A stretch of 56,573 nt of DNA from an uncultured Acidobacteriota bacterium (GTDB lineage: Bacteria; Acidobacteriota; UBA6911): NCBI GenBank assembly GCA_963827655.1, contig CAWHCF010000018.1:1-56573 (forward strand), given 5' to 3'. Below are positions 6,298 to 52,525 of the stretch, one piece after another. Position 1 is the first letter of the stretch. Each line of letters starts with the position of its first letter. The notes below the pieces were generated by a model, which was given only the letters and a program-made list of their open reading frames with translations, ran no database searches and was not told the origin of the DNA. The translations under genes were made by a program, and so were the position numbers.

Positions 6298-6334
6298 CTT
6301 AGTGTTTCTTCGAGTCTTCGCGTCTTCGTGGTTA
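6298..6334 (-). repeat. REP-like 9-bp-periodic element (reverse orientation)
   Basis: gtgtttcttcgagtcttcgcgtcttcgtggtta is the reverse complement of the family consensus. Confidence 0.85.
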
Positions 6335-6350
6335 GAACTACTATTACCGC

Positions 6351-7682
6351 ATGCCGGTGCGGCCCATCTACAAAAGCTATCCTATCTACGCGCCCGGCAG
6401 AGAGCCGCCAGGCTATCTCGATTGGCTCAAGCAGCAGGAGCCGGAGATTGTTCCGGAGACCGTCTTTGATCCGGCTTGGCTCAAGACGGAAGCTGACTGG
6501 ATTAAGGCCGGCGAACTCGTCTTCGATGCCCTGACCACTTATGAGGGTGAGCAGGGGGGATTTGTGGCGGTGGCTGACGTGAGAAATCCGGCGTGGTACG
6601 AGCAGACGGGCACGCCCATCGCTAAAGATGGCACGATGCCTTTCGCGCGCTACGTGATCAGAAAAAAGGGAGAAGTGGTAGTAGGCAACCAATCCTGCGC
6701 GATGTGCCATATACGTGTGATGGCCGACGGGACAATCATCAAAGGGGCGCAGGGTAATTTCCCCGTTGACCGCGTGATCGTCGCCGACACGCGGGCACGC
6801 GTCTCGCTGGAACGCGCGCGCGCGGCGGCCCGGCGCCTGTTCGCCGTGCCCTGGCTACGGCCCGACTCGCAGGCGCGGATCGAGCAGATGTCCCTTGAGG
6901 AACTCGCTGCGACGCGTCGGGCGATCCCGCCCGGCGTGATGGCCCGCCACGGCACGAGTCTCTTCTCCCCCGTGCAAATACCCGACCTGATCGGCGTCAA
7001 GGAGCGCCGTTACCTGGATCGCACCGGCCTGGTACGCCATCGCGACATCGGCGATCTGATGCGTTACGCGGCGCTCAATCAGGACGCCGACGTGCTCACG
7101 CGCTATGGTGAATTCAGACCCATTGAGGTGGTCTTCGGCAGACTGCCCGAGCCGGACCGGCTCGGGCGCTACAGCGATGAGCAGCTCTACGCGTTGACGC
7201 TCTACATCTACTCGCTCAAGCCACCGCCGAATCCCAACAAGCGGACGGCGCTTGCGGTGCAAGGCGAAAAGGTGTTTCAGCGCGAGGGCTGCGCGGCGTG
7301 TCACACGCCCCCGCTCTACACCAGCAACAAACTGACTCCGGTGGAGGGATTCAAAGTGCCTGGCGATCATCGCACGCGCTTCGACATCCTGCCACTCTCG
7401 GTAGGCACTGATCCGACTCTGGCTCTAACCACCCGTCGTGGGACGGGCTACTACAAAGTTCCTTCTCTGAAAGGCGTCTGGTATCGCGGCCCGTTCGAGC
7501 ACAACGGCTCGGTAGCGACGCTTGAAGACTGGTTCGATCCGAAGCGGTTGCGCGACGACTACGTGCCGACGGGCTGGAAAGGCTATGGCGTGACAACGCG
7601 GGCGGTGAAAGGGCACGAGTTCGGGTTGAAGCTTTCGGCGGAAGACAAGCGGGCGCTGATCGCGTTTCTGAAGACGGTGTAG
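6351..7682 (+). CDS. di-heme c-type cytochrome of unknown function, probably 5'-truncated
   Basis: CAMCH and CAACH motifs; YKVPSLKGVWYRGPFEHNGSVATLEDW and GHEFG...LIAFLKT tail; no signal peptide or RBS. Confidence 0.8.
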   Translation: MPVRPIYKSYPIYAPGREPPGYLDWLKQQEPEIVPETVFDPAWLKTEADWIKAGELVFDALTTYEGEQGGFVAVADVRNPAWYEQTGTPIAKDGTMPFARYVIRKKGEVVVGNQSCAMCHIRVMADGTIIKGAQGNFPVDRVIVADTRARVSLERARAAARRLFAVPWLRPDSQARIEQMSLEELAATRRAIPPGVMARHGTSLFSPVQIPDLIGVKERRYLDRTGLVRHRDIGDLMRYAALNQDADVLTRYGEFRPIEVVFGRLPEPDRLGRYSDEQLYALTLYIYSLKPPPNPNKRTALAVQGEKVFQREGCAACHTPPLYTSNKLTPVEGFKVPGDHRTRFDILPLSVGTDPTLALTTRRGTGYYKVPSLKGVWYRGPFEHNGSVATLEDWFDPKRLRDDYVPTGWKGYGVTTRAVKGHEFGLKLSAEDKRALIAFLKTV

Positions 7683-7885
7683 AGCTCAGACCAGTATCCC
7701 GGCCGTCAGGAGGGGTGCTTCCGCAATCTACTGTTGCTGGCTCGGTCCCATCTAATTGTGTCTAAGATACTTATGTCCGATTTAGCTCAGATTAGAACTG
7801 CTGAAGTCAAATTCGTCTGTAATATCCTGCCTCATAAAGTTTTAAGTCCATCCCAGCAACACTTGATGACGGAAGCACCGCGCGA

Positions 7886-7912
7886 GCCCTAAGACACGAA
7901 GACTCGAAGAAA
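7886..7912 (+). repeat. REP-like element (forward)
   Basis: ctaagacacgaagactcgaagaaa. Confidence 0.75.
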
Positions 7913-8219
7913 AGCAAAGGACCTGGTCGTATACGCTTTGAAAGTCGCTCCCGCAAGTTGACAGTACCCCTCCGGTGAAGCCGAAGTTTGATGGCCCGGC
8001 GAGCGGATGCGCGTTTCGCGGGCTTGCTGCGAAGCCTTTCGCGTCGTAGCGCTCGCCTTGCTTTGGCGCGCTGACCCAAAGACACTATCGCGACAGAATC
8101 CTTGTCTCCAACTGCGACATTTATTAGCATAAAGACCCCCTTCGCAAACGCCTGGTGAACAGTGCGTGCGAGGCATTGCACGCCCGGACTTGGTATCCTG
8201 AGGCTCGTTCCCGCAAACC

Positions 8220-10457
8220 ATGGGACAGAAAGCTGCAGTTCCTTCATCGTTAGACATCCGCCTGCTCGGCCCATTTCAGATCGCTGTGGACGGCACGACG
8301 CTCGAAGATCGCCGATGGCCACGCCGGAAGCCGAAGATGCTGGTGAAACTTCTGGCGTTGCAGTCCCAGCATCAACTTCACCGGGAGCAGATGATGGAAC
8401 TTCTCTGGCCCGAAATCGACCCGGAATCCGCCAGCAACAACTTGCATAAGATCATTTATATGGCGAGACGGGCCCTGGAGCCCGGCCTGAAATCCGGCGC
8501 CCATTCCCGCTTCATCATCACACAGGAACAGCTGATCCTGCTGCGCGCTCCGAGTAGCCTGTGGATTGACGTGGAAGCGTTTGAACAAGGGGCGGCCGAA
8601 GCCATCCGGTGCGGGGAACCCGGAGCCTACGAGGAGGCGCTGGCCTTGTACCGGGGCGACCTGCTGACCGAGGATCTCTACGAAGAATGGTCCGCCTTCC
8701 GGCGTGGTCAACTGCGATCCTTGCGTCAAGATCTTTTGACCAAACTGGCACAACTCTATGAAAGAGACGGCCAGTACTTGCAGAGCACGAACTGTCTGAA
8801 AGAAATTCTGGCTTCGGAGCCGTCCAATGAAGACGTGCACCGTCAGTTGATGCAGCTATATGCGCGCACAGGCAACCGCCATCAGGCGTTGCGCCAGTTC
8901 CAACAGTGCTGCGAGGCAGTGCGGAAAGAACTCGATGCCGAGCCTGAGGAAACCACCCGTCAGCTCTACGACCGGATTGTCTCCGGGCAGGTCGAACCCT
9001 TAGCGCGGAGCGCGACGGAATCCGCCGGGGAACGCGGCGATTCCATCCATTCGCTCGCGGTCCTGCCTTTCGCCAACACCGGTGCCGATCCCAACCTGGA
9101 GTACCTCTGTGAAGGCATCACCGAGAGCATCATCACGAGTCTCTCGCAACTGCCCAAGCTGCGTGTAATGGCGCGAGCCTCCGTCTTCCGCTACAAGGTC
9201 CGGGAAGCAGATCCTCAAGTCGTGGGCCGGGAGCTGGCGGTGCGAGCCGTGCTCCTGGGAAGAGTCGCTCAGCTAAAGGACACTTTGAGCATCTGGACGG
9301 AGCTGGTGGACGCCCGGGATGGATCGCACTTGTGGGGCGAGCAATACCACCGCAAATTGGCCGACATCTTCGCCATCCAGGAAGGGATTTCCCAGGAGAT
9401 ATCGGAAAACCTCCGGTTGCGCTTGACCGGGGAAGAAAAGAAGCGAATGACCAAGCGCTATACAGAGAGTGCCGAAGCCTATCAGCTTTATCTGAAGGGG
9501 CGCTACCACTGGAACAAGAGGACCGGTGAAGGCCTGAAAAAAGGCATCCAGTACTTTCAGCAGGCAATCGAGAAAGACCCTGGCTACGCCCTGGCCTATA
9601 CCGGGTTAGCCGACTGCTACAACTTGCTGAGCCTTTACAGCGCGCTTCCTCCAAGGGAGGCGATGCCCAAGGCCAAAGCGGCGGCGCTGCAGGCGCTGGA
9701 GATAGACGACTCGCTGGCTGAAGCTCACAACTCACTGGCCTATGCCAAGCTGTACTACGACTGGGACTGGAACGGCGCCGAAGGGGAATTCCGGCGAGCC
9801 CTGGCGCTGAACCCGAACTACGCCATTGCTCATCATTGGTATCACGAGTATCTGGCGGCCATGGGGCGGTTCGAGGAGAGCCAGGCTCAGATCCTGCGCG
9901 CCCAGGAACTGGACCCGCTTTCCCTCATGATCAGCGCGGATGTTGGATGGGGACTCTACTTCGCACGGCGCTACGACGAGGCCCTCGAACAGCTGCGCAA
10001 GACTCTGGAGTTGGAACCTAACTTCGCCATGGCGCACTTCATCCTGGGCCTGACCTATCTGCAAAAAGGCCAGTTCCAACAGTCCGCGGCGGAACTTCAA
10101 AAGGCGATTGCCCTTTCCGGAGACAGCCCATTGACCCTGGCTCTGGGAGTGCTCGGCCACGTTTCGGCGGCATCGGGCAGGAAACACGAGGCGCACAGGA
10201 TGCTGGAGAGGCTATCGGCCCTATCCCGGCAACGTTATGTATCCTCCTATAGCCTGGCCATAATCTACACCGGACTGGGCGAGAAAGATGCGGTGTTTGC
10301 GTCGTTGCGGAAAGCGTGTGAGGAGCGCCATGACCGCCTGATTTACCTCAACGTCGAACCTATCTTCGACGGCATTCGCTCAGACCCAAGATTCCGCGAT
10401 CTGCTCCGGCCCATCGGGCTGGAGCGCAAGTCTTCGAAAGCGGCCGGAAAGTATTGA
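8220..10457 (+). CDS. SARP/BTAD-family transcriptional regulator with TolB_N-like and TPR domains
   Basis: IRLLGPFQI, ALALYRGDLL, HRQLMQLYA (BTAD); SLAVLPFAN...EGITESII (TolB_N-like); C-terminal TPRs ending DPRFRDLLR. Confidence 0.9.
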   Translation: MGQKAAVPSSLDIRLLGPFQIAVDGTTLEDRRWPRRKPKMLVKLLALQSQHQLHREQMMELLWPEIDPESASNNLHKIIYMARRALEPGLKSGAHSRFIITQEQLILLRAPSSLWIDVEAFEQGAAEAIRCGEPGAYEEALALYRGDLLTEDLYEEWSAFRRGQLRSLRQDLLTKLAQLYERDGQYLQSTNCLKEILASEPSNEDVHRQLMQLYARTGNRHQALRQFQQCCEAVRKELDAEPEETTRQLYDRIVSGQVEPLARSATESAGERGDSIHSLAVLPFANTGADPNLEYLCEGITESIITSLSQLPKLRVMARASVFRYKVREADPQVVGRELAVRAVLLGRVAQLKDTLSIWTELVDARDGSHLWGEQYHRKLADIFAIQEGISQEISENLRLRLTGEEKKRMTKRYTESAEAYQLYLKGRYHWNKRTGEGLKKGIQYFQQAIEKDPGYALAYTGLADCYNLLSLYSALPPREAMPKAKAAALQALEIDDSLAEAHNSLAYAKLYYDWDWNGAEGEFRRALALNPNYAIAHHWYHEYLAAMGRFEESQAQILRAQELDPLSLMISADVGWGLYFARRYDEALEQLRKTLELEPNFAMAHFILGLTYLQKGQFQQSAAELQKAIALSGDSPLTLALGVLGHVSAASGRKHEAHRMLERLSALSRQRYVSSYSLAIIYTGLGEKDAVFASLRKACEERHDRLIYLNVEPIFDGIRSDPRFRDLLRPIGLERKSSKAAGKY

Positions 10458-10640
10458 ATCCTTGAATCAAACAGGACCGACAGCGTTGTTTTACGCCTCG
10501 GTGTTAGAAGAGCCCGCCGGCAAGCGAGCGGGAAGATTTTGGGAAGTTGCGGCGAGGACAATGCCTGATGATCCTGATCGACTCGGAGTCGGACAGGAGC
10601 TGTGCGGCCCCCAGGATGACAACGGTTCGAGGAGTTCAAG

Positions 10641-11246
10641 ATGGCATTGTCCCAGCGATCGACTCAGCTTGGTCCTCTCGAGGCCCGCTGGATGGCTCTC
10701 ATCCAGCGGATTGCGCAGGGAGACCAGCAGGCCTTGGCGCCGCTCTACGATGAAACCAGCCGCTTCGTATATGCCCTGGCGCTGCGTATTCTGCAGGACT
10801 TCGGCCTGGCCGAGGAAGCAACCATGGACGTCTATCTTCAGATCTGGCGTCAGGCCCATTCCTATGCGCCGGCCCGCGGAAACCCTTCCGCCTGGCTGTT
10901 GAACATGGCCCGAAGCCGTGCTATCGACCTTCTGCGCCGCAAAGCCAGGAAGAAGCGGTTGGAGGAGTCGCTCGAGGCGGCTGGCTCGATGGTGGCCAGC
11001 ACCCATGACCCGGAACAGGCCAGCCTCCTGGGTGAAGAGCAGAGGCGCGCTCGGGAAGCCCTGGCTCAACTTAATCCGGAACAACGAGAGGTGATTGAGA
11101 TTGCCTACTACGCTGGTCTGAGCCATAGCGAGATTGCCGAATTGCTGGGGCTCCCGCTCGGGACGATCAAGACTCGGATTCGGTCCGGAATGATGAAGCT
11201 GCGGGAATCCTTGGTGTCGCTCGAGGAATGGGACCTCGCCAGTTGA
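10641..11246 (+). CDS. ECF sigma-70 factor (SigK-like)
   Basis: GAGGAG RBS; [12 protein letters not shown] region 2 and [23 protein letters not shown] region 4. Confidence 0.9.
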
Positions 11247-11355
11247 CGAGGTAACCGCGAAGGCCCACTTTTCCCTCAGCACTTTTAACTTTTTACTTTC
11301 CCTTCAGCCCTTTTTACCTTTTACTGAAGGATGTGCCAGCGATTCAGAGTTAAGC

Positions 11356-12285
11356 ATGAGCCGTCGTGACCTCCTCTCGACGATGGGAGCCGCCATCGTA
11401 GCCGGCCTGCCGCGAACCGGGGCCGACGGGCGGCTCCAGGTATGCATTTTCTCCAAGCACCTGCAGTGGCTCGATTGGAACGAGATGGCGGGCACAGCCG
11501 CGGAGCTTGGTTTTGACGGCATCGACCTGACGCTGCGAAAGGGCGGACATGTCGAGCCCGAGCGCGCCGAACAGGACCTCCCCAGGGTGGCCGAGATCAT
11601 TCGAAAGGCAGGCCTCGCGTTGCCGATGGTCACTGCGGGGATTGTGGACGACCGCACCCCCCACGCCGAAACCATGCTCCGGGCCATCCACTCCGTTGGG
11701 GTGCGTCGCTACCGTTGGGGAGGTTTTCGCTATATCGAGGGCAAGCCAATCCCGGAACGTCTGGCCGAGCTTCGGCAAGACGCGGCCAGGCTGGGCGAGC
11801 TCAACCGCAAGTACGATGTTTGCGCCATGTATCACACCCACTCGGGCCTGGAGGTCGGCGCCCCGATCTGGGACCTCTGGGTCATCCTGAAGGACCTGGA
11901 TCCGGGGGTCCTGGGCGTCAACTTCGACGTCGCGCACGCAACGATCGAAGGAGGCCTTGGAGGCTGGATCGCGTCCCTGGGGCTGGTCGGACCGTGGATC
12001 CGCGGCGTGGCCATCAAGGACTTCCGGTGGGAGCGGAATGAGCGTGGAGAGTGGCGGCCGGCCTGGTGCCCTCTTGGCCAAGGAATGGTTAACTTCGGGC
12101 GTTTCTTTGCCAAGCTGAAGGAATCGAACTTCTCAGGCCCGGTGCAGCTGCATTTCGAGTATCCGCTCGGAGGAGCCGACACCGGCGCTCGTAAGCTCAC
12201 GATCGATCGCTCCCAGGTTCTCGCGCCCATGAGGCGCGACCTCGAGATGGTGCGCCGCTGGCTCCGGGAGGCCGGACTCGCCTGA
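11356..12285 (+). CDS. Tat-exported sugar phosphate isomerase/epimerase (xylose-isomerase-like TIM barrel)
   Basis: SRRDLL Tat motif; GFDGIDL, YHTHSG, NFDVAH, IKDF, LHFEY metal-binding motifs. Confidence 0.85.
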
Positions 12286-12292
12286 CAGGGAA

Positions 12293-12402
12293 CCTACCGC
12301 CAAGACACAGCGACTGACACACTGCAAAGTGTTCCTGGTGTTTCTTTGTGTCTTCGTGTCTTCGTGGTTAGCTCAATACATCTAAAACGCGAAGAAACAC
12401 CG
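12293..12402. repeat. cluster of REP-like elements (degenerate forward 12293-12320, reverse 12335-12370, partial forward 12385-12402)
   Basis: accgccaagacac...; ctggtgtttctttgtgtcttcgtgtcttcgtggtta; acgcgaagaaacacc. Confidence 0.8.
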
Positions 12403-12423
12403 AATCTCAAGGGAGGTGCCGCG

Positions 12424-15400
12424 ATGCCCGCAACCCGGGGTCAACCGAAATCGATCGAGACGCGGCTCGGACTGGTAATGTACGGCGGCGTGGCGCTCGC
12501 GATCTACATCAACGGCGTCGCGCGCGAGTTCTTCGGGCCGTACGCGGTAACGGCGTCTACAAATGGCTCAAGGCGCTGACCGACTCCGACATCGTGGTGG
12601 ATATCATCAGCGGCACTTCGGCGGGCGGCATTAACGGGATCATGCTCGCCTATGCGCTGGCGAACGAAAAAGAGTTTGGCGACGCGGCCAGCTTGTGGCG
12701 GCGAGACGGCGATATCCGCAGCCTTCTGCGCTCGCCGGGCGGCGGCGGCGACGGAGCGCCTTCTTTGCTGGACAGCGAAGGCTTCTATCAGCCCCGGTTG
12801 GAAGAGGCTTTCCGTCTGATGACCGCCTATCAGCCGCGCGACATGCATGAACTGGAGTTCAATTCTCCGGTGAAGGAACTCGACTTGTTCGTGACCGGGA
12901 CGGACGTGGACGGACGCATCGCCACGCTTTTTGACGATGCCGGACACCCGATTGACGTCAAGGATCATCGCTCGGTCTTCCTGCTCAAGCATCGCGCCGA
13001 CCGCAAAGAGCCGTTCAAGCCGGAGTCGGTAACTTACCAGGCGCTCGCCAAGCTGGCGCGCATCACCTCCTGCTTTCCTGCCGCTTTCTCGCCCGTCGGC
13101 GTGACCTGCCCGTCGACCGATGAGGAAAAACAGAAAGAGCCGGTGGACACGCGCCTGCAGGAATGGGGTCGCCTTGGCAAAGATGCAACTTTCCTTGACG
13201 GCGGCGTGATTGATAACAAGCCCTTCACCTACACGCTGCAAGAGATCTTCGGACGCATGGCCATTTGCAAAGTCGAGCGCAAGCTGTTTTACATCGAACC
13301 TGACCCCGAGAGCTTCCGGCGACCGGAGCGTGCCAGCCAGCCGAATGTGCTGCAAGCGGTTCTGGCGGCGCTGATCGGCATCCCGGGGTACGAGAGCATC
13401 TCGGAGGATCTCAAGCTGCTGGCGAAACACAATCGCAAGCTCAGCCGCTACAACCGTCTGCTCCAGGCGGCAAAGCAGCGCGACATAGGCCAGACGCATA
13501 TCGCCGCGTCTCCCCGGGAGCTGAATGAGGTCTATCAGCGCAGCCGCTTGATCTCGATCAGCGACCGCGTCGTCCAGGGCCTTTTGCGCGAACAATTCCG
13601 CGACATGCATCTGGCTGACCTGAGCAGCGCCGCATCGGTTCGGCGCTTTTCGCCGAGTTCGACAGATTCCAGAGCACGAGCCGGGACGCGGGCAGGATAA
13701 GCGAGGTCGAAATCATCCTCAGGGACTTCGACGTCTATTATCGCTTGCGGAGGCTCTATAGCATGGTCTACCTGCTCTACGATCTACTGTACGGCAAGGA
13801 GGCGCCCCCTTCGACCGAGGCCGAAAGACTGGAGCTGGTGAATCTGTGGCAAGCGATCAACCGCCAGATTGAACTGCTTGAGATCGTCCGCGCGCGCCTG
13901 GAGCGACTGGTGGACGAAATCGACGTCAAATGGGAAGAGCGATTCAGGAGGTGCGAGGTACGCTGGAAAGAGGGACAGCTCGCCAGCCGGGACGAGGCCG
14001 ATGCGGAAGCCGCGCGCGAAATCTGGGGGATCGTCGGCGCGGCGATGCATCATCTGCTGGATGCCGACGGCAAGGCCGGCCAGAAGGTGAAGGAAAGCTA
14101 CGTCACAGGGCCCGATGGAAGGTCACGAGTTGAAGAGCGAGCACCTGAGCGAGATCAACCAGACACTCAAGAGTTTGGCCGGTGAGGCGCGGCAAAAAGT
14201 CGACGCTGGAGAATTCGATGATTTCTCTCCGCTGGTCAAATCTCTCTTCACCCTGACCGATGACTATGAACGCCGGCTGCTCGACCGGCTCCTGCGCGGC
14301 CCGGGCTCCTGCTCAATCCCAGTCGACCGCATCCGATGCGCCACGTCCTCTGGGCGAAATCGTTCGCGAAGCCTATGACGACTTTGAGGCGCTCGACGAA
14401 GTGATGTTGCCCATAGAGTTGATAGGTGATCTGTACGAGAAAGATCCGATCGAGACCATCCGGATCAGCCCCGCCGATGCTAACAAGGGGTTCAGCGATA
14501 AGGGTCTGTCGGACAAAGTGGCGGGCGACGCGCTCTATCATTTCGCCAGCTTCTTCAAGCGCTCCTGGCGCTCGAATGACATTCTCTGGGGCCGGCTCGA
14601 CGGACTGTGCCAGATCGTCGAAACCCTGCTCACTCCGGACAAACTGCGCGAGATAGCCGGCAATCCAGGCGGGCGCAAGAGGCTGCGCGCGTTTTTCTTC
14701 GACCCAGCCGGGGAGTGGATTCCCGAAATGAGATCGTCCTGGCTCTTCCCCAACGCCGGGAAGAAGACTCAGGACGAACTGGAGCGCTGGATCAAGGACC
14801 TGCTGTGGGACGATGAAGACGAGGGGAAGCGCCGGGCGGCTCTGGCCGATGAGGCGTTCGGCGAACAGGTCAAACTCCTGATCGAAGCGGCCCAATTGGA
14901 GATTCTGCACAATGATGTGCCCAGCGTCATCAGCGACGCGCTCGAAGAACAGACGATCTGGAATCAATTCCGCATTTCGCCGGTCAAGTCGGCTCAGACA
15001 TACCGGCCGCGCGAAAATGGAGCCGGTGAGGGCAAGGATGATTTGTTTTCGTTCCAGCCAGGCGGTGGCCCGATTGATCACTTCGTCGGAGCTGTGGCAG
15101 CCGCCGCACAGTCGTTCACCAGGGCCGAGCAGCTCAAGGACGACGATAGCGCGCCCCGCCCCAGGGAGACCAAGCTCGGCAAGCTTTTCCGCCACCAGTA
15201 CAGGGTCGGGACCGAGGCATTGCTCCGCGATCTGCCGGCTCTAGTGCTGCTGGAAATTCTAGCTGTGGCGCTGCTCGTGCTGCGCGACTGTATCCTGTCG
15301 GTGTTCGGCCCAAACGCCCCGAAGATCAAGAAGAACACGCTTTACTTCCTGGGCATAGATCTGCCACTGCGGACCTTCTATGGGGCAGTGCTGTTGCTGC

Positions 15401-16404
15401 GACGCGCGCCACAATCCTGGGTGGCTTTGCAGATTGGCCTCTTTGTGCTGGCCTTGCTGGCTCTCCTGGTCGGCATTAACTGGCGCAATGAAATCTTGTA
15501 CACTCCGACCACCTTCGGTCCACAGCTGCAACTAAAATGGTTCGTGGTCTTCATCGCTCTGCCGCTTATGGTGCTTGCGGGCCAGGGAGTTTTCATCTGG
15601 AGAGGACGGATCGGCAAATGGCGTTGGGCGCGAGTGCTGCGCGACGCCCTGGTGGCTGCGCTGCTGGTCGCGCCCCTGCTTGTGTTGATCCTGACCTTTC
15701 AGACCCTCTCCCAAGTCGTCCTCCGGAATGCCACTGCACTCTATGAAATTGCGTATCACGCCGTCACCGTGCGCCTGTTCGCGCCGGGCTGGGTGGCTCA
15801 CATCATCACCGGACTGGCTATCGCGGGCTCTCTCCTTGGCATCGTGCTCGGTCTCTGGTGGCTCAACCGCATGGGTCGCAGCCAGCCGCTCAGCGAGCAG
15901 GAACTGCGCTTCGCGCTGGAGAACTACTTTTCGCTCGAAAAACTGACACTGGTGGGTCGGCGGGTCTTTGACCTGGACAAGGCTCAGTTCGAAGAATGGG
16001 TCAGGCCGGCCAAGATGATGACGTGGAAGAAGCTGAAGCATGAACTGGACAAGACCCTGACGCACGATAAGGTCAGGATCGTCGGCGACAAGCTCCATGC
16101 CGCGCCCAGTGAGTCCGTTTCCTGGGAGGAAGTGCGCAAGGCGCTCAAAGAGTCGGCCGAGTTGGACGAAGTAGATCTGGATGCGCTCGCTAACCAGATC
16201 GGCATTACCAGGCTGGTGGCATCGCACCTGGTGGCACAGGTCAAACAGCAGCCCACGCGGGTCAAGCGCGGGAGAAAGCTGCTCGATAAACTTGTGATCG
16301 CGAAGCAGGCAGCCCGTGAACTGCTGGCACAAGCCAGACAGCGAGACAGGTTCGCCCGGCTGGAGCAGGAGATCCGCGCCATCAACCCCGAAGTATTGCG
16401 CTAG
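12424..16404 (+). CDS. large patatin-like protein (DUF3376-type) with C-terminal TM helices and a soluble tail; frameshifts ~12535, ~13640, ~14125, ~14310
   Basis: GGAGG RBS; YGGVALAIY glycine loop, GTSAG nucleophile elbow, DGG, HFASFFKRSWRSNDILWGRLDG (DUF3376-like); several hydrophobic helices; collinear ORF pieces. Confidence 0.8.
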
Positions 16405-16410
16405 GGGGCT

Positions 16411-16447
16411 AACAAATACCACCAGGACACGAAGAAACGAAACCAGG
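16411..16447 (+). repeat. REP-like element (forward)
   Basis: aacaaataccaccaggacacgaaga is identical over 25 nt to 49779-49803. Confidence 0.8.
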
Positions 16448-16602
16448 GGGACTACATTTGCTGCGGAAACGGTGGTATACTCGCCCGATCCTTCCCGAAA
16501 CCGCCATGACCTGCTCGGGTAAAAAATATAAACCCTTAGCGTCCCGGTGTCGGCGTGTGAGTCCGTGACGCGTCGACCTCAGGGATCACAAGGAGTAATC
16601 GA

Positions 16603-17598
16603 ATGAACAGATTAACCGTCGTTGCTGCCGTAGGTTTGATGGCCGTCGCTCTCGGCTACGCGGAGCAGGGGTGGTATCCCCATGAGGGGGGACTGCTCAA
16701 GTACCGGGTCAACATTCGCTTTGGCGAAGAGCCCGCCGACACCATGCCGGAGGGGTGGAAGTTCGGCCGCGTCTCAGCCGTCGCAACCGACAGTGAGGGG
16801 CAGGTCTACGTCTTTCATCGCGGTAAGAAGGCCGATCCTATTGTTGTGTTCGACTCCAAAGGAACCTATCTCCGCTCCTGGGGGAAAGGAATGTTCGGGA
16901 ACCCGCACGGTCTTCGAGTAGACAAAGATAACAATGTCTGGATCACCGACAACGGGGATCACCAGGTTATGAAGTTCACCAAAGATGGAAAGCTGCTTCT
17001 CACCCTGGGGATCAAAGCGAAAGCCGCGACCGATGAGAAGACGTTCAATCGGCCCACCGACATTGCTTTTGCTCCTTCAGGCGAGTTTTACGTCTCAGAC
17101 GGTTACGGCAACTCGCGCGTGGTGAAATTCTCCAAGGATGGAAAGTACCTCATGGCCTGGGGCAAAAAAGGGAGCGGGCCGGGCGAGTTCGACACGCCTC
17201 ATTCGATCGCCGTGGACTCGAAGGGCACCGTCTATGTCAGTGACCGCGAGAACAATCGGATCCAGATCTTCGATGCGGATGGAAAGTTCCTGCGCCAGTT
17301 TACTAATCTGGGGGCGACCCAGAACGTCTTCATCACGCCCAAGGATGAGATGTGGATCATCACGCACCGCAACAACATCGAGAATATCACTTACGACACA
17401 CTGGCTGGACGAATCATGCGCATCGACACCGCGACCGGCCGCATTCTGGGATCGATGGAGAGTCCCGGGCACTGGTTGAACGTCAGCGCCAAAGGAGAGA
17501 TTTTCATCGGCAGCCTGACCGGTAATGTCTTTCGCTGGTACCCCGCATGGCTGGACCGGGGTCTCGGTTCCGAAGAAGGTCTTCGGCCGCCGAACTAA
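16603..17598 (+). CDS. secreted NHL-repeat protein (peptidyl-alpha-hydroxyglycine alpha-amidating lyase family)
   Basis: AAGGAG RBS; signal peptide; PHGLRVD, FNRPTDIA, SDGYGNSRV, GEFDTPHSIAVD, DRENNRIQ motifs. Confidence 0.88.
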   Translation: MNRLTVVAAVGLMAVALGYAEQGWYPHEGGLLKYRVNIRFGEEPADTMPEGWKFGRVSAVATDSEGQVYVFHRGKKADPIVVFDSKGTYLRSWGKGMFGNPHGLRVDKDNNVWITDNGDHQVMKFTKDGKLLLTLGIKAKAATDEKTFNRPTDIAFAPSGEFYVSDGYGNSRVVKFSKDGKYLMAWGKKGSGPGEFDTPHSIAVDSKGTVYVSDRENNRIQIFDADGKFLRQFTNLGATQNVFITPKDEMWIITHRNNIENITYDTLAGRIMRIDTATGRILGSMESPGHWLNVSAKGEIFIGSLTGNVFRWYPAWLDRGLGSEEGLRPPN

Positions 17599-17619
17599 TC
17601 TTAATACACGATTGATCGT

Positions 17620-17702
17620 CGCGTTTCTTCGTGTCTTCGAGTCTTTGTGGTTAATACGGCTAAACAAACCCCACGCCCAAGATACGAAGACTCGAAGAAG
17701 AA
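17620..17702. repeat. REP-like doublet (reverse 17620-17653, forward 17672-17702)
   Basis: gcgtttcttcgtgtcttcgagtctttgtggtta ... cccaagatacgaagactcgaagaa. Confidence 0.85.
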
Positions 17703-17718
17703 CTGAACAGGAGGTGGT

Positions 17719-21045: not shown

Positions 21046-22487
21046 TTTCGCGTCTTTGCGTCTTGGCGGTTGGTTGGCTGCGAACCGATGCCGAAAGTGC
21101 GGGCGGCGTAGCCGGAGGAGACGGGCTTGACCTTCCTCAGGGTCTCTGCCCAGCTCTTGTGACCGTACTTCTTCTCGAACTCGGAAACGGCCGCCTGGTA
21201 TTCTTCGAGCAGCCGCCGCTTGACCGCCGGCTCGGCAAAGGAATAGGTGAGGCTGTTCCGGCCCAACTCCACAATCTCGTCCCAGGTCAGGTTGAAGTGA
21301 GTGACCGCCGTGTAGTATTCGTCAGTCATATTTGAATCCCACACACCCGGGTCGTCGGTGTTCAGACAGACAGGGATTCCGAATCGCAGGAATTCAGGGA
21401 AGGGGTGTTTCGACAAGTCGGGCACGTATTCGAGCAGGCGGTTGCTGATAAGGTTGATTTCAACCAGATACCTGTTGTTGCGCATCAAGAGCATCGTGTC
21501 GGGATCGGTAATCAGATTCAGACCATGACCGATCCGCGTGGCGCCCAGCAATAGCGTGTCGCGAACGTTGGGGCCCGGGGAGTCGACCTCACCACCGTGG
21601 ATGGACAGTCCGATGCCGCTGTAAGTTCGACGCATCTTGCGGAAAGTATCCAGAAACCGGAGCGCGAATCCTTTGTCATTGTCCTCGCGCCCGCCATGTT
21701 GATGCCTACCCATAGATCTCGATTCCGGTCGACAAACTTGTAGTTGTTTTCCAGGGTCTGTTCGGCCTGGGGACTGAAGCGAAGCATGTTGCTTTGAAAT
21801 CGCACCGTGACACCGGTAGCCTTGGCTTCGGGCCGGCTGAGCGCCTCCCGCCAGATCTGCGCGGCTTTCTCGGCATCGATAGCATTCCCTTCCTGGTCGC
21901 GAAAGTTGATGGTGACCTGGGGTTCCAGGTAGCGCAGGCCTTCTGCGCCAAACCGTTTCATATTCTGGATCAAGAGCTCGGTCGCGATATTGGGATCCCG
22001 GGCGAGTTCGTTCAGCCGCCCGACAATCACTTCGAAGAATTCATGGCGCCCCTCGCCTTCGGCATCGAGCTTCATGGCGGACAGCCACTGCTGCTTGAGC
22101 GCCGGAGTCAACTTTGCCAGCGGTTGGTATTCTGATTTGCCGCAATTGCTGAGCTGGTTGTAGGTAGTTCGCTGGATGGTCCGGAAGAGCAGGAGCGGAT
22201 CGGTGGTCTCCGGACAATTAGCGATCTTTGTGCGAGTGTAGTATTCGTTGCCCGCGCGTTACCTTCGGACTGGTTGCGGCTTCGTACCACATCTCCGGCA
22301 GGTAGGATAACCCGAGATGATTGTGCAGGTCCCCGCCTTTGGGAAGATCGTACAGAAACGCATAGAGCTGCTCTTTATTCGCGGTCTTCTTGATCTCTTC
22401 GAATGTTTGGAAAAACCCCTGGGGGAAGGCTGAACCGCATAACCACGAAGACACGAAGACACCAAGAAACACCAAGCATCTAGTCAC
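21042..22487 (-). CDS. secreted adenosine deaminase, ADA2/ADGF-like (frameshifts ~22255 and ~21690)
   Basis: GGAG plus GTG start at 22487; LPKGGDLHNH, SIHGGE, RIGHG, NTDDPG amidohydrolase motifs spread over three collinear ORFs. Confidence 0.82.
21045..21072 (-). repeat. REP-like element (reverse), inside the 3' end of the deaminase gene
   Basis: gtttcgcgtctttgcgtcttggcggttg. Confidence 0.75.
22440..22476 (+). repeat. REP-like element (forward), inside the 5' end of the deaminase gene
   Basis: taaccacgaagacacgaagacaccaagaaacaccaag. Confidence 0.88.
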
Positions 22488-22489
22488 GA

Positions 22490-23641: not shown

Positions 23642-23717
23642 TTCTTCGTGTCTCTGTATCCTGACGTATTTGTTGCGCAGCGCTAACCACAAAGACACGA
23701 AGACGCTAGTGAAACGC
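23642..23717. repeat. REP-like doublet (degenerate reverse 23642-23670, forward 23684-23717)
   Basis: ttcttcgtgtctctgtatcctg ... taaccacaaagacacgaagacgc. Confidence 0.8.
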
Positions 23718-27265: not shown

Positions 27266-27292
27266 ATTCTCCGCGTTGCGCCTTCGTGGTTG
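27266..27292 (-). repeat. degenerate REP-like element (reverse)
   Basis: ttctccgcgttgcgccttcgtggttg. Confidence 0.5.
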
Positions 27293-27323
27293 ATTCTGTT
27301 CTATCATTCACCGGAGGGATTTC

Positions 27324-31417: not shown

Positions 31418-31450
31418 ACCTCCAAGACACGAAGACACGAAGAAACGCCA
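31418..31450 (+). repeat. REP-like element (forward)
   Basis: acctccaagacacgaagacacgaagaaacgcca. Confidence 0.85.
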
Positions 31451-31952: not shown

Positions 31953-31988
31953 CTTGGCGTTTCTTCGAGACTTGCTTCCTAGTGGTTG
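31953..31988 (-). repeat. REP-like element (reverse)
   Basis: tggcgtttcttcg is the exact reverse complement of cgaagaaacgcca at 31438-31450; ends gtggttg. Confidence 0.75.
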
Positions 31989-36501: not shown

Positions 36502-36608
36502 ACCTAACCTACAAATACTCTGGAAAGGGAAACCGCCCGTGTTCGCCCACACCCTCCTGTCAGGTGCCGATTGGTGCGCACCTTCAGAGATGATTTCCCT
36601 GGTTTGGC
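36502..36608 (-). mobile_element. second attC-like site
   Basis: minus strand GCCAAAC...AAT[C]A[T]CTCTG...CAGAGTATT-TGTAG-GTTAGGT (perfect GTTRRRY; stem with two unpaired bases), 107 bp. Confidence 0.45.
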
Positions 36609-36822
36609 GCGCTGTCAGCTTGTGACAGAATTTCCACTGCCGGAGCGCTTGGTCAGCTCCGCTTTGCGGACAACAAGCGGGTGGCATCTCGCGGCAGCGT
36701 CCGCCGGTCACGGAGAGGTTAGTCTCGAAGGTGAACATGATACGGTTGCTGACTATTTCCGCGCGCCAGGCTTCGTTCTTTTTGTATTTTCTCCCGACAG
36801 TGCCCCATACGGGGTGCCTGAC

Positions 36823-39800: not shown

Positions 39801-40131
39801 TGGAAACCCGTACTCCTTTCAAAAGATCGCTTCGAATAACAGTTGCTATTCTGTACTCATCCGGAGCTGAACGAGTCAGGACGCTAGAACTGGCGGGTAC
39901 TGCTGGAGGTGAAAAGCGTTGATCTTCGGCTCGTCGGTTCTCGCGGCTTCTTGCGCGTTCTGATCTACTCTGTTGTTATGCTGGTGAAGGAACTGCTGCG
40001 ATTTCCCACGTTATACTCTGCTTATGATCTCTTTTCTGTTTTTCTAGCTGATATTCTACTGTTATTCACTAGTGCGGCAACGGCACGTGAGAGCTGTATG
40101 GAAAGTGTAACTGGCGGGTGGGAGAAGCTTT

Positions 40132-40214
40132 CTTTGCGTTTCTTCAGTTTTTAAGTTTTTGTGGTGAATTAAGATTCGCTTTATTCACCACAAAGACGCG
40201 AAGAAACACCAAAG
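40132..40214. repeat. REP-like doublet (C>T-eroded reverse arm 40132-40168, intact forward arm 40184-40214)
   Basis: tttgtggtgaat...attcaccacaaa inverted pair followed by gacgcgaagaaacaccaaag. Confidence 0.8.
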
Positions 40215-40322
40215 TAATGTGACAGCTCTTGCCGTGTTGATGACGCTTACTTTATGACGCTTACCTTAAATATAGATGCGTGCGCTAAAGGGGCGCTGTT
40301 GGCATATAATGAGGCCCAAAAC

Positions 40323-42009: not shown

Positions 42010-45000
42010 AAGCACTGAGCCGGCAGCCGGCTTTTACATCACCGGCGGCACGCTGCGCTCACGACGCGCCGTCCTATGTCGAGCGCAGAGCCGACCACGA
42101 CCTCTCGACGGTTTGCGTCAAGGGCAATTCTGCTACGTGCTGACGTCCCGCCAGATGGGCAAGTCGTCGCTGATGGTGCGGACGGCTGCGACTTCGCGAG
42201 GAGGGCGTCGTGATCGCGGTCTCGACCTGACCGCCGTCGGCCAGAACCTGACAGCCGATCAATGGTACTGACGGACTGCTCGTGCCAGATGGGCCGGCAG
42301 ATCGGGCTGGAAGAGGAACTGGAGCGAATTCTGGCGGGCGCAACGCGCGGCTCGGACCGCTCCCAGCGTTTCTTTGCAGGCCCTGCGGGACGTGGTTCTG
42401 CCGCGCTATCCGGGCAGCGTGGTCATCTTCGTGGACGAAATCGACGCCGTCCGCAGCCTGCAGTTTTCCACCGATGAGTTCTTTGCCGCCATCCGCGAGT
42501 GCTACAACCGGCGCGCCGAGGATCCGGAGTTCGACCGGCTCGGCCTTCTGTCTGCTCGGCGTGGCCACACCGTCGGACCTGATTCGCGACACGCGGACCA
42601 CGCCATTCAACATCGGGCGCCGCATCGAACTGCATGATTTCACGAGGGCGGAAGCGACGCCAGCTGGCGCAAGGCTTGAGGCGGAGCGAGTGCCTCGGCG
42701 AGGCGCTGCTGGACCGGCTCGTATAGTGGACCGTGCGGGCATCCCTACCTGACCCAGAGACTCTGCCAGGCTATTGCGGAAGCCAAGAGCGTCGCGACCG
42801 GACGGAGTAGACCGCACAACGCGACGCGTTTTTCTTCTCGAGCCGCGCCCGCGAGCGCGATGACAACCTGCTGTTCGTCCGGGAACGGATGCTCCGGAGC
42901 GAAGTAGATCTCGCGGGCCTGCTGACGCTCTACTCGCAGGTCCTGCGTGGAAAGACCGTGGTCGACGACGAGACCAACCCGCTCGTCGGTGTGCTGCGCC
43001 TGTCGGGGATAGCGCGGTCGGAAGACGGCAGGCTCCGGGTACGGAACCGGATCTATGCGCATGCGTTCGACGCCGGGTGGGTCGCGGCTGCCATGCCCGA
43101 CGCCGAGTGCGGCGCCAGCGGGTTGCCTACCGGCGTGGGTTGCTGCGGGCAGCGGTCCGTCGCCGCTATCGTCATTGCGGCAATTGCCAGTCTCACGTTG
43201 ATCGCCGTGCGACAGCGTAACCTTGCCAGGGCGGAGGCGGAGCGCGCGGACCGCAACCTGCAGCAGGCCAACGTGAGCGCACAGCGGGCTCAGGAGGCGC
43301 TGGTAGATGCGGAGAGACACCGGCGCAGAGCGGAGGGCAGCAATCGGAAGCGGAGATGCACGGCAGAGGCGCTCGACCAGAAGGCGATCACCGAGGAGCA
43401 GCGCAATCGGGCGGAGCACCAGGAGAGGGTCAATCGCGGTCAACTGTATGCCGCGCACATGAATCTTGCGATGCAGGCCTACGAGAACTCCGATATCGAT
43501 CGGCTGCAGGAACTGCTGGAAGCGCATCGCCCGCGGCCGGCGTAGACCCGCGTGCCACCATGAGGATGGGTCTTCCTTGAGGGGCGACCTTTTCGATGCG
43601 GGACGAGAAGACCTGCGCGGTTTCGAGTGGTACTTCCTGTGGCGACAGGGTCACCGCGACCTGCGGACGCTGCATCATCGGAGCATGGTCGGTCCGTCGC
43701 GTTCCTTCCTGACGGCAAGAGGCTTGCCGTCGGAGAACAAACGCGCATAAGGTTCTGGGATACGGCTACGGGCCGTGAGCTGGATCTTCTCGAGGGAGGC
43801 ACGGGTTTCGGTTGGCTGATGAGCCTTTCCCCCGACCGGAGAAAGCTGGTTACGGCGGGGGAGGAAGCCGGCACCCTCGACTTGCACACTGGGTATGAGA
43901 ACCTTGGTCACACTGCGATGTTATGGGACCTCGACACCGGGCGGCAATTTGTAACCTTAAAAGGGCACACTGGCTCGGTTAACTGTGCGGAGTTTTCTCC
44001 CGATGGGAGGGTTCTCGCGACAGGAAGTGTCGATAAGACGATCAAGCTTTGGGATGTCGCCACAGGTCGCGAGTTATTCACCCTCCAGGGCCACACGGAC
44101 AGAGTCAGTTCTCTCTCGTTTTCACCAGACGGCAAGAGCCTGGCTACTGGAGGTGCTGACGGGACTGCAAAGCTCTGGGAGGTAACCGCAGGACAGGAGC
44201 CGCGTCTGCTCAGGTCGCACGTCGTCCGAGAAGGGCGCGGGGCCCAGACCTGGGCAGTAGCATTCTCACCGGACAGTAAACGTCTGCTTGCGACGGGAAC
44301 CTTTACCTTCGTCAGAGTCTGGGATGCGGTGACAGGCCAAGAGCTCGATCCGTTGAGGGGGCACCGGGCTGGTATCACGAGCTTGGTCTTTTCTCCGGAT
44401 GGCAGGATTATGGCCAGCGGAAGTGATGACCGTACTGTCATGCTGTGGTCCGTCGAAAAGGGGCAAGTGCTGGGGACGATCAGGGGCCATGGGGGCCAGG
44501 TCGCTGGGGTAGCTTTTTCACCGGACGGTAAGACCTTGGCCACCGCCAGTATCGATAAGACCGTGAAGCTTTGGGATGTCGCGAGCAGCCTGGAAGTGCC
44601 GACTCTGAGAGTCGACGGGATGGCTAACACTCTGGCGTTTTCGCCCGACGGCGAAAAATTAGCTGTGGCGCCGATGGAGAAAACGGCGACCATCTGGCAT
44701 GTCGCGACGAGACAAAAGTTGATCACCCTTGCGGGCCACCAAGAAGCGGTCATTGCGGCGGCCTTTTCGCCAGACGGAAGGAAGGTGGCGACAGCTAGTA
44801 ATGATAGGAGCGCCAGGGTCTGGGACGTGACCACGGGGCGGGAGTTGCTCGCGCTCAGGGGACACACGGGCACGCTCAGGTCCATCGCGTTTTCGCCCGA
44901 TGGGAAGAGACTGGCGACCGCGAGCACCGACCATACCGCCAAGTTGTGGAATGCATTGACGGGACAGGAACTGCTCACTCTCAAGGGCCATACTGCCGAG

Positions 45001-45496
45001 ACCTGGTCCCTGGCATTCTCGCCCGACGGCAGCACGGCTGGCTACGGGCAGCGAGGACAAAACCGTCAGGCTGTGGGATGCGGCCACGGGCCGAGAGCTG
45101 CTTGTCTTCGAGGGATACAAGGCCCGCTCGCTGGCGTTCTCACCCGACGGCAAGATCGTGGCGATCCCGAGCTACGACACCAACATCATCAAGCTGTGGA
45201 ACGTCACGACCGGGCGGGAGCAGGGGACTCTCAAGGGACACGCCAGCAGAGTTTATGCCGCTGCGTTCTCGCCCGACGGAAAAAGGCTAGCCACGGCGAG
45301 CAATGACTCCACAGTCCGGGTGTGGGATCTGGCGACCGGGCAGGAGCTGGTTGCTCTGAAAGGACACTTTACCGTGGTCAGTTCCGTGGCGTTCTCCCCC
45401 GACGGCAAGACACTGGCTTCGGGGAGCGGTGATCTGACGGTAAGACTCTGGCGCGCCGCTACGGAGCAGGAAGTGTTGGCGCGAGGCAAGGAATGA
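42006..45496 (+). CDS. AAA_35-like NTPase fused to a hydrophobic/coiled-coil linker and WD40 beta-propellers (multiple frameshifts)
   Basis: [48 protein letters not shown]; LYAAHMNLA...[11 protein letters not shown]; more than 12 GH...FSPDG...WD repeats. Confidence 0.8.
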
Positions 45497-49778: not shown

Positions 49779-49818
49779 AACAAATACCACCAGGACACGA
49801 AGACTCGAAGAAACGCCA
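49779..49818 (+). repeat. REP-like element (forward)
   Basis: aacaaataccaccaggacacgaagactcgaagaaacgccag. Confidence 0.85.
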
Positions 49819-50893: not shown

Positions 50894-50920
50894 CAACCAC
50901 CAAGACTCAAAGACGCAGAG
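50894..50920 (+). repeat. REP-like element (forward)
   Basis: caaccaccaagactcaaagacgcagag. Confidence 0.7.
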
Positions 50921-51756: not shown

Positions 51757-51801
51757 GATGAAAGATCCTTGTTCGCTGGCGGCTTGAAGAATCGGCTGAG
51801 T

Positions 51802-52053
51802 TCACTCGGATTCGGTATCCTCTGGCTGGGTCGCCTCGCCCCTCGAAAGGATCTCCTCCACAATTGCCGTAGCCTGCGCCTCATGTGCGTCTTCAACGAT
51901 CCAGACCTCCAGCCAGGATTCCGTCCACCCAACCGCCCAAGTCAATCCCGAGCGGTCGCCGCCGAGAATCTCACATGAAATTCCCGCTTCCTCCAAAGAG
52001 GTCTTCACAAGTCCCGTCACTAGAGGGTCTGGCGAGGAGTAGACTCGCTTCAT
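51802..52053 (-). CDS. DUF2007-like small protein
   Basis: MKRVYS...LVKTSLEEAGISC...EVWI...AQATAIVEE pattern. Confidence 0.7.
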   Translation of the reverse strand: MKRVYSSPDPLVTGLVKTSLEEAGISCEILGGDRSGLTWAVGWTESWLEVWIVEDAHEAQATAIVEEILSRGEATQPEDTESE

Positions 52054-52234
52054 CCCGTTTGCTCCGGCGCGGCCTTAAGAAAAGTGCTTCCTGAAATCAT
52101 AGGACATTGATGGACATTATACTCCGTAAGTCGGTGCTCGGTCGCATCTAACCTCCCGCCATGGACCACTGAGGCGTGGGCGACCGGGGAAAACGCAGCG
52201 ATAGGCGCATCCAAATAAAAAAAGTTTCGAAGTT

Positions 52235-52432
52235 TTCGATTTCTCGATTTTCAAGGAATTTCAGGTTCGAGAAGGATCGCGGCTTCAGTTCCGGGCTGAG
52301 TTCTTCAACTCCACCAACACACCCAACTTCGTCGCGCCCAATACACAGGTTGACACAGCCGCGGCTGGGAGAGTCACCGCCACCGCCAATAGTCCGAGGC
52401 AGATCCAGTTCGCTCTCAAGTACAGCTTCTAG
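52235..52432 (+). pseudogene. C-terminal remnant of a TonB-dependent receptor (not in the ORF track)
   Basis: translates FDFSIFKEFQVREGSRLQFRAEFFNSTNTPNF...SPRQIQFALKYSF*, paralleling the end of 17719..21045. Confidence 0.85.
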
Positions 52433-52434
52433 GA

Positions 52435-52525
52435 ATTAACAACCAGGACTCAAATAGGCCTTGGAGTCTTCGTGTCCTGGCGGTTAATGCGCATAAACAA
52501 AGCCACCACTAAGATACGAAGACGC
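52435..52525. repeat. REP-like cluster (hairpin 52435-52488, forward arm 52505-52525)
   Basis: attaacaaccaggac...gtcttcgtgtcctggcggttaat; caccactaagatacgaagacgc. Confidence 0.8.

Follow-up and report, generated by a model that had tools for sequence, protein, structure and literature searches.

Strain typing has for decades made use of short tandem repeats dispersed as arrays over bacterial genomes, such as the short tandemly repeated repetitive (STRR) sequences of heterocystous cyanobacteria, and we know of no explanation for the origin of STRR-like arrays. A second compact arrangement, a small open reading frame (ORF) between complementary arms, occurs in the intervening sequences of 23S rRNA, which are excised by RNase III. 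The repeat considered here lies in a 56,573-nt stretch of DNA from an uncultured Acidobacteriota bacterium of the lineage UBA6911 (assembly GCA_963827655.1, contig CAWHCF010000018.1, positions 1 to 56,573 of the forward strand). This stretch, referred to as the window, is the entire contig C18 of the draft genome G000 (8.18 Mb, 59% GC, 53 contigs, 90% complete). Each copy of the repeat, termed an arm, consists of a head, mostly two or three 8-nt units and a tail. The explanation we favor is that the repeats of the window are copies, without the gene, of the arms belonging to a selfish minigene cassette, akin to STRR arrays and to repetitive extragenic palindromic (REP) sequences. The full cassette, as observed in other genomes, comprises a ~125-codon gene for a minimal PD-(D/E)xK nuclease of the GxxExxY family (TIGR04256 / PDDEXK_3) between two inverted arrays of short units. 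The CACGAAGA arm family would have multiplied without the gene to ~940 intergenic loci, mostly just past stop codons, with gene-less arms outnumbering the master element as the copies of REP sequences and their hairpin-forming doublets (REPINs) or of MITEs (miniature inverted-repeat transposable elements) do. The evidence points to a little-known selfish element rather than to a gene-shuffling system.

Of the published kinds of repeat, the dispersed heptamer arrays of Xanthomonas and Nostoc come nearest; 89-93% of them fall between genes, at a mean distance of 28 nt from the upstream ORF, with no strand preference and with 70-75 inverted pairs (Rehm et al. 2015, PMC4692102). STRR repeats are described as hairpin-forming sequences of unknown function (PMC2670836), and in logic the nearest analogue is the group of REP, REPIN and REPtron elements (PMC3733652). 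The arms resemble the STRR arrays and the Xanthomonas GGGAATC arrays in their tandem units of 7-9 nt, their ~90% intergenic and strand-neutral occurrence, their frequent convergent inverted pairs capable of forming hairpins, their location, which is much nearer the upstream ORF's end than the following ORF, and the lack of a known function. They differ in that the unit is 8 nt long and A/C/G-rich, rather than G-rich or quadruplex-prone, and is accompanied by a defined head and tail. Furthermore, 90% of the Xanthomonas arrays are reported to have the same ORFs on either side in two species (PMC4692102), whereas most syntenic sites of the present repeat differ between two genera, and the accessible passages of the published accounts (PMC4692102, PMC2670836) draw no link to a nuclease gene. 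With REP sequences, REPINs and bacterial interspersed mosaic elements (BIMEs), the repeat shares hundreds of extragenic copies, singlets together with doublets of fixed spacing, mosaics and a location mostly downstream of genes. It is also patchy in relatives, serves as a target of the IS110 family and follows a repeat-nuclease gene-repeat plan that is REPtron-like (Di Nocera 2013, PMC3733652). In contrast, a single arm is non-palindromic, whereas the REP unit is an imperfect palindrome of 20-40 bp; the GTAG/CGTC tag is absent, the unit number is variable, and the partner gene encodes a PD-(D/E)xK nuclease instead of a Y1/HUH enzyme. MITEs are likewise numerous and non-autonomous, and both the doublets and the forward…insert…reverse pairs resemble terminal inverted repeats around a non-coding core. 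Unlike MITEs, the arms are without fixed length, none of the multi-copy elements longer than 500 bp is bounded by them, and the IS110 copies lie inside arms instead of between them. The intervening sequences of 23S rRNA, in which a four-helix-bundle ORF family (PF05635) is found (PMC10053308), are comparable in placing a small ORF between complementary arms, but the arms described here are not in rRNA and the cargo is a nuclease. The REP-targeting IS110/IS1111 elements IS621 and ISPpu10 are similar in that an element is inserted at one sequence inside a repeat (IS621 and its relatives insert into REPs; PMC11208160, see also 10.64898/2026.03.19.712850), although such an element is a guest and not the repeat itself.

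The repeat is present in the window far beyond chance, as its core pattern gives 8 matches with at most 3 mismatches and none in 100 shuffles. A first-pass annotation of the window had described a dispersed, non-autonomous, REP-like element with a 9-bp period. This description stands except for the period, which Tandem Repeats Finder gives as 8 bp at 9 window sites (unit AAGACACG). An nhmmer profile was iterated on the genome, and an arm is a match at E≤1 unless stated otherwise; with the genome-built profile, the window contains 14 arms at E≤1 and 16 matches at E≤10. Among the 22 starts listed earlier, 17 coincide with matches at E≤10 (tolerance -25/+5 nt, one match being counted for two listed starts), and the other five (12293, 12385, 23642, 27266 and 40132) are weaker partial copies recognizable by eye only. 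The head of an arm is of one of two types, …CTCTAACCAC (ending …TAACCAC) or …AACAAATACCAC. It is followed by units of the NAAGACNC type, which are CACGAAGA-like, and by the tail GAAGAAACACCAAGA; a crude regular expression found two units in 474 and three in 602 of 1129 arms. Forward arms contain only 4.8% T. Approximately 20 longer mosaic copies carry two extra conserved blocks and are BIME-like. Three single arms that were folded are unstructured (0 to -8.5 kcal/mol, z > 0), and head-to-head doublets form long imperfect hairpins (-23 to -34 kcal/mol, z -2.2 to -6.7). Features of CRISPR (clustered short palindromic repeats, regularly interspaced) and the GTAG/CGTC tag had been reported as absent, and both statements are borne out; the copies are kilobases apart, occur in both orientations and stand singly or in pairs. 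In 6000-24000, no site resembling an intrinsic terminator (a GC-rich hairpin and a following T-run) coincides with an arm, and Rfam gave 0 matches in the window at the gathering threshold. In annotation, the arms should not be taken for coding sequence, CRISPR or terminators.

The association of such arms with a nuclease gene was revealed by other genomes. An exact 21-mer of the arm is present in at least 117 contigs of a collection of species-representative genomes, belonging to Acidobacteriota, Chloroflexota, Planctomycetota, Verrucomicrobiota, Proteobacteria, Cyanobacteria and Armatimonadota. The usual pair in the 117 contigs is forward…reverse, with heads outward and 7-240 nt of unique sequence enclosed. 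Four GxxExxY genes occur within these loci, each abutting an arm. In a metagenome-assembled genome of Rhodospirillaceae (L107), the arm pair encloses a 124-codon gene, the arms abutting the ATG and following the stop, and the product is a TIGR04256 'GxxExxY protein' (E 3.6e-42). The gene of L141 is also bracketed by arms, and those of L059 and L100 have an arm on one side only. In G007 (contig C689), which is a relative from the same family but another genus, an intact GxxExxY gene lies between CGCGAAGA arms. Arms of the same type accompany the sole GxxExxY gene of G000, a frameshifted copy on contig C19. The first-pass annotation had found no GxxExxY gene inside the window, which is correct, and had suggested that similar repeats flank GxxExxY PD-(D/E)xK nuclease genes; cassettes of this kind in several genomes bear the suggestion out.

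Inverted tandem arrays, separated from each other by 370-560 nt, enclose 17 of 29 GxxExxY genes among relatives (above the 95th percentile of cross-pair controls), seven of eight further ones in G007, G033 and G009, and nine of ten in genomes of Methylobacter, Nostocales, Kouleothrix, Verrucomicrobiales and Burkholderiales. When 41 of those 47 genes were re-scored jointly, 31 lay between inverted tandem arrays of 8-10-nt units. The units vary among cassettes (CACAGAGA, CGCAAAGA, GCGCGGAGG, CCACGGATT, CGCCAAGAA and others), and in the common plan C-R-C-purine-rich units of 8-10 nt come after a head of the AAC type. The AAC-type heads point outward in most cassettes read and inward in L213. Arm similarity correlates with nuclease identity (Spearman rho 0.47, 465 pairs; 0 of 2000 permutations reach the value). 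Arm similarity averages 0.49 where the two cassettes of a pair come from different genomes and share at least 60% protein identity, compared with 0.26 where both come from one genome. The correlation indicates that gene and arms travel together. GxxExxY/PDDEXK_3 is a large family spanning many phyla, and the association of arms with the nuclease extends across phyla. The GxxExxY motif is conserved in 25 sequences, as are the catalytic D…ExK residues. Neither the nuclease nor its profile has a sequence match among solved structures; PADLOC gives only faint matches to Cas4 and PD-(D/E)xK cores, PHROGs gives none, and a protein atlas search with the nuclease returned its own family only. PDDEXK_3 has been tabulated as a family of unknown function with multiple transfers (PMC3424549). 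Among the papers searched, none ties GxxExxY, PDDEXK_3, PF13366 or TIGR04256 to repeats, although family descriptions and supplements, which the search did not cover, may mention it, and none contains the arm 14-mer.

The 936 arm loci of G000 cover 38 kb and comprise 1129 arms at E≤1, of which 736 reach E≤0.01. A total of 1000 arms are intergenic, 123 are genic and 6 lie at contig ends, with ~80% of the genome being coding according to a crude home-made gene caller. The loci comprise 745 single arms, 175 reverse-forward doublets, 12 forward-reverse doublets and 4 other forms. The reverse-forward doublets have facing heads and a modal spacer of 17 nt; 75 combine the two head types, 2+1 have heads of the same type, and in 97 one head or both are unclassified or ambiguous. 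In co-directional intergenic regions, the median distance of the arms is 20 nt from the preceding stop and 71 nt from the following start; 310 loci are closer to the stop and 154 closer to the start. Occupancy is 22.9% (184/805) for convergent, 15.7% (443/2822) for tandem and 16.9% (156/925) for divergent regions. The orientation of single arms relative to flanking genes is random (183 vs 185), and so is that of head-typed doublets (21 vs 20). Neighboring single loci are also randomly oriented (reverse-forward 88, forward-reverse 83, reverse-reverse 82, forward-forward 80), and the forward…reverse excess among all neighboring loci corresponds to that generated by head-to-head doublets alone. 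The earlier claim of non-random orientation is thus right within doublets, as the figures of 175 and 12 illustrate, and wrong relative to genes and between neighboring loci. A replication-polar motif of the KOPS (FtsK-orienting polar sequences) type was considered and rejected, as neighboring single arms show no same-orientation runs.

Changes in the arms were traced within the genome and among relatives. A 6.5-kb internal duplicate, 96% identical, has only two gaps of at least 5 nt, both of which are 8-nt unit changes within arms; therefore, the unit number drifts by slippage. Internal duplicates (81-99% identical) bear the same arms in both copies, except that two weak matches align poorly, and no empty site was found among them. 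The window region is too diverged from relatives to be aligned at the DNA level, and the neighbors of the NHL gene are not syntenic. Contigs bridging empty sites were not found in soil and rhizosphere runs, where contigs stack on arms and the joints come from other loci, and the single metatranscriptome provided no ends that could be used. Comparison of 112 syntenic gene pairs between G000 and G007 revealed the element in neither genome at 97, in G000 only at 8, in G007 only at 5 and in both at 2; it used an 853-kb sample of G007 with stop-to-stop ORF limits, and gap lengths instead of nucleotide-level alignment. In 12 of the 13 one-sided pairs, the intergenic gap is longer in the element-bearing genome (e.g., 139 vs 41, 259 vs -19 and 165 vs -7 nt). 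The pattern CGAAGACNCGAAGA has 392 matches in G000, 453 in G007 and 48 in G033, a member of another family. The other 38 relatives (41 genomes being G000 and 40 relatives) have 0-10 each, and the reversed control gives 0-2. A second arm family, CACGGATT(N) with a period of 9, is represented by 161 copies in G008, 72 in G020, 49 in G021 and 35 in G034 (controls 0), and its arms often form forward…reverse pairs ~130-160 nt apart (G008, G020, G021). As separate arm families have been amplified in separate relatives, family-specific bursts are common. The carriers of the 21-mer include the cultured Methylobacter psychrophilus and Kouleothrix aurantiaca. In the record of M. psychrophilus (L130), positions 2408-2570 are an unbroken array of ~20 CACGAAGA/CACGAAGGA units, and therefore arrays can far exceed the usual 2-3 units.

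Taken with the array-bracketed gene, these data would supply a candidate enzyme-substrate pair and a model of spread, in which arm sequence follows the nuclease and bursts are family-specific. Tentatively, the nuclease may be a trans-acting factor that recognizes its own arms when they adopt a hairpin or cruciform shape and that initiates recombination or homing, by which the arms are copied to new sites with or without the gene; for example, the cutting of extruded hairpins by the nuclease could trigger copying between arrays. The arms are probably selfish and now orphaned in G000, and the copies would be largely relics at present, with effects on neighboring transcripts being secondary. It is conceivable, at a level of confidence no higher than that given to the nuclease mechanism, that GxxExxY nucleases and inverted arrays constitute a cross-phylum class of selfish elements undescribed in print, REPtron-like but with a different enzyme. 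If so, each nuclease lineage would recognize its own 8-10-nt unit and seed hundreds of gene-less arrays, family by genome, which would explain the dispersed short tandem repeats of the STRR type in cyanobacteria, xanthomonads and others. The records of M. psychrophilus and K. aurantiaca provide cultured carriers.

Several observations weigh against the interpretation of the repeats as arms of a nuclease cassette. G000, an assembly that is 90% complete, is without an intact GxxExxY gene, G008 with its 161 arms has only gene fragments, and G020 with its 72 arms has no gene. As G008 and G020 are arm-rich in spite of this, amplification needs no resident intact gene now. Gene and arm numbers are uncorrelated; G025, for instance, has 19 gene-family matches and 1 pattern match. 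The heads of the commonest pair in G000 face each other, whereas those of the gene-bracketing form are mostly outward. Ten of the 41 re-scored GxxExxY genes have no clear bracket, and no nuclease remnants were found in the unique inserts of gene-less forward…reverse pairs from other phyla. Related cassettes are included in the correlation between arms and nuclease, which therefore indicates that gene and arms are inherited as a unit and is not proof of arm recognition. The turnover between genera rests on gap lengths and stop-to-stop ORFs, with no target-site duplication defined. Finally, the placement just past stop codons would fit a selected 3'-end function as well.

Among the alternatives, the most serious, though we regard it as unlikely, assumes that the arrays came first as independent landing pads of host or selfish origin, and that guests, namely the GxxExxY genes, the PF05635 four-helix-bundle genes and the IS110 element, home in on them. 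The insertion of an IS110-family element into arms is in line with this assumption, as is the bracketing of PF05635 genes in G000 by arrays of other, 6-7-nt units (5 of 11 above the cross-pair control). Arm-rich genomes may be without the gene (G020, G008), and gene-less arrays are vastly more numerous than gene-bearing ones. However, arm sequence follows the nuclease and not the host genome, which is easier to explain if gene and arms move jointly, and the geometry in which the arms border on the gene's start and stop is similar in distant phyla.

It is less probable still that the copies were selected as 3'-end elements, such as mRNA stabilizers, RNase III sites, insulators or protein-binding arrays, with mobility being secondary; roles of this sort have been put forward for REP and for cyanobacterial STRR repeats. 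Although their median position 20 nt past the stop and their enrichment between convergent genes agree with such a function, the element is as frequent in divergent regions as in tandem ones, and orientation to transcription is random. The stems of the doublets (-23 to -34 kcal/mol) might act in transcripts, as STRR heptamer arrays have been discussed as possible transcript stabilizers (PMC2670836) and the Xanthomonas heptamer arrays are placed likewise (PMC4692102), but single arms account for 745 of the 936 loci, and the three that were tested are without a fold. None of the nine terminator-like sites in 6000-24000 lies on an arm. In addition, 13 of the 15 occupied syntenic sites are filled in one of the two genera only, and the arms are absent from most relatives.

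A classical REP/REPIN family moved by a REP-associated tyrosine transposase (RAYT, Y1/HUH) is very improbable, in spite of the hundreds of extragenic copies, the inverted doublets of fixed spacing and the targeting by IS110, all of which are typical of REPs (PMC11208160). A link to a RAYT gene fails in G000, whose sole Y1_Tnp gene (L001; contig C35, 41647-42862; 223 aa) lies between its own perfect 25-nt inverted repeats, found nowhere else in the genome, with the nearest arm 2.1 kb away. Among 20 Y1 loci from five relatives, only two weak arm matches were found (E 0.049 and 0.68), neither flanking the gene, and one Y1 gene of G033 is flanked by an unrelated GC-rich palindrome. Moreover, neither GTAG nor CGTC occurs in the profile consensus or in the consensus sequences derived from 412, 391 or 234 anchored copies.

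The reading of the first-pass annotation, in which inverted pairs delimit modules of ordinary genes and mediate shuffling or truncation, is scarcely tenable: the four forward…gene…reverse brackets of the window (NHL, receptor, NUP and cupin genes) do exist, but the rule drawn from them has no genome-wide excess, as 22 of the 69 genes that are flanked on either side by an arm at a distance of up to 80 nt are forward-reverse (reverse-reverse 23, reverse-forward 12, forward-forward 12), as are 10 of 46 when single arms alone are counted (reverse-forward 11, reverse-reverse 16, forward-forward 9), and, orientation and bracketing being random genome-wide, the module reading fails. A parent insertion sequence with arms as its ends was also sought, and none was present among self-similar segments longer than 500 bp.

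The genes of the window are acidobacterial in type and include CarboxypepD_reg + OMP_b-brl_4 receptors, ECF sigma factors and NHL, NUP and cupin genes, and soil and rhizosphere sequencing runs contain DNA that is nearly identical to the window. Every copy in the window is intergenic or abuts a gene end, a placement that had been claimed for almost all of them. A single arm with the head CTAACCAC and three 8-nt units is located at 6297..6332 on the minus strand (nhmmer E 9.9e-09; no fold, z +0.28), inside a 67-nt gap between the stop of a TPR gene at 6283 and the ATG of a cytochrome-c gene at 6351, and a single arm without the usual head at 7888..7912 on the plus strand (E 8.5e-4). At 12296..12314 (+), a weak partial arm is seen by eye only, with no profile match at E≤10. 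Next to it are an arm with the head GCTAACCAC and three units at 12334..12368 (-; E 2.9e-06) and a tail-only fragment at 12387..12401 (+; by eye), which pairs with the tail of the former; the fold of 12325-12410 is -23.0 kcal/mol (z -3.1). A single arm with the head AACAAATACCAC lies at 16417..16441 (+; E 0.58), 13 nt past the stop at 16404. The junction between the NHL gene and a TonB-dependent-receptor-like gene is occupied by a doublet, whose left arm is at 17620..17651 (-; E 2.3e-06) and whose right arm at 17676..17699 (+; E 0.091) ends ~20 nt before the ATG at 17719; the doublet folds with -29.3 kcal/mol (z -2.3). The receptor gene is followed, 2 nt past its stop, by a single arm at 21047..21070 (-; E 0.37), and an unstructured single arm with the head TAACCAC and three units is found at 22442..22476 (+; E 4.5e-06). 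A degenerate doublet consists of a left arm with the head AACAAATAC at 23642..23674 (-; by eye) and a right arm with the head GCTAACCAC at 23686..23706 (+; E 1.5, first-pass profile E 0.03), with a fold of -23.1 kcal/mol (z -2.3) for 23635-23720.

In the second half of the window, a weak partial arm at 27267..27293 (-; by eye only) precedes the ATG at 27324 by 30 nt. The single arm at 31418..31450 (+; E 1.9e-06) matches the core consensus exactly, with 0 mismatches, and another at 31953..31973 (-; E 0.53) lies directly past the stop of the cupin gene; the 13-mer said to be common to both ends of this gene is present. An AT-rich degenerate left arm at 40129..40168 (-; by eye) and a right arm at 40189..40211 (+; E 0.076) form a doublet of -33.6 kcal/mol (z -6.7). 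A single arm with the head AACAAATACCAC follows at 49785..49818 (+; E 2.4e-07) and a short one at 50896..50916 (+; E 0.42). The 25-nt identity reported for the copies at 16411 and 49779 was reproduced. A cluster of three arms at 52436..52525, of mixed orientation (52436-52458 +, weak; 52460-52484 -; 52505-52525 +; E 0.16 and 6.6), folds with -30.8 kcal/mol (z -2.2). The reverse+forward doublets listed earlier are confirmed at 17620/17676, 23642/23686, 40129/40189 and 52460/52505. Directly before the three-arm cluster, 52257-52430 is, by eye, a free-standing C-terminal remnant of a CarboxypepD_reg-type outer-membrane TonB-dependent receptor that ends in a stop. It is the sole truncated neighbor of a copy, and it is not cut at an arm, contrary to the proposal that genes are truncated at the copies.

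Guest elements are also found in the arms of G000. An IS110/IS1111-type element of 1.74 kb, encoding a 385-aa DEDD_Tnp_IS110/Transposase_20 protein, is present in 5 copies (C10:24128-25893, C10:27318-29110, C37:40553-42318, C44:199326-201070 and C20:14318-15817). The flanks of 4 copies were read, and in each of these the element is inserted into an octamer arm, always at one short sequence. This use of arms as a target fits REP-like behavior, and the arms thus mark insertion hot spots of the IS110-family element. The layout of the Y1_Tnp locus L001 is the TIRYT/TIRtron arrangement described for Acidobacteria (PMC3733652). At the G033 locus L004 (contig C122), 1300-2030 contains a classical REPtron, in which unrelated GC-rich palindromes flank a Y1 transposase gene as an inverted pair, and a tail-to-tail hairpin of octamer arms lies ~650 nt downstream, directly past a UPF0102-like gene. 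The PF05635 four-helix-bundle genes of G000 (23S_rRNA_IVP, Avd-like) occupy 11 loci outside the window, e.g., C51:53465-53773, C25:45220-45531 and C26:290717-291013, with inverted arrays of 6-7-nt units that are locus-specific. Gene-less hairpins of 7-nt units (AATGACC / TCATTTC) occur at 26210-26395 of the window, between a YkuD and an M15 peptidase gene, and the same unit type brackets the PF05635 gene at C26:213018-213317. Elsewhere in the window, the region 36000-40000 is ORF-poor, with a GC content of 0.48-0.52 vs ~0.59 and a GC skew of up to +0.20, and the ORFs scanned there have no Pfam match; a 384-bp tandem repeat of 1.8 copies (35467-36170) lies just upstream of it. Overlapping ORFs with protein-kinase and AAA (STAND-type) fragments at 40824-43545, upstream of a WD40 gene at 43627-45306, look like a frameshifted large signaling gene. 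Two further short tandem repeats are located at 11270-11325 (period 28 nt) and 40240-40268 (period 14 nt).

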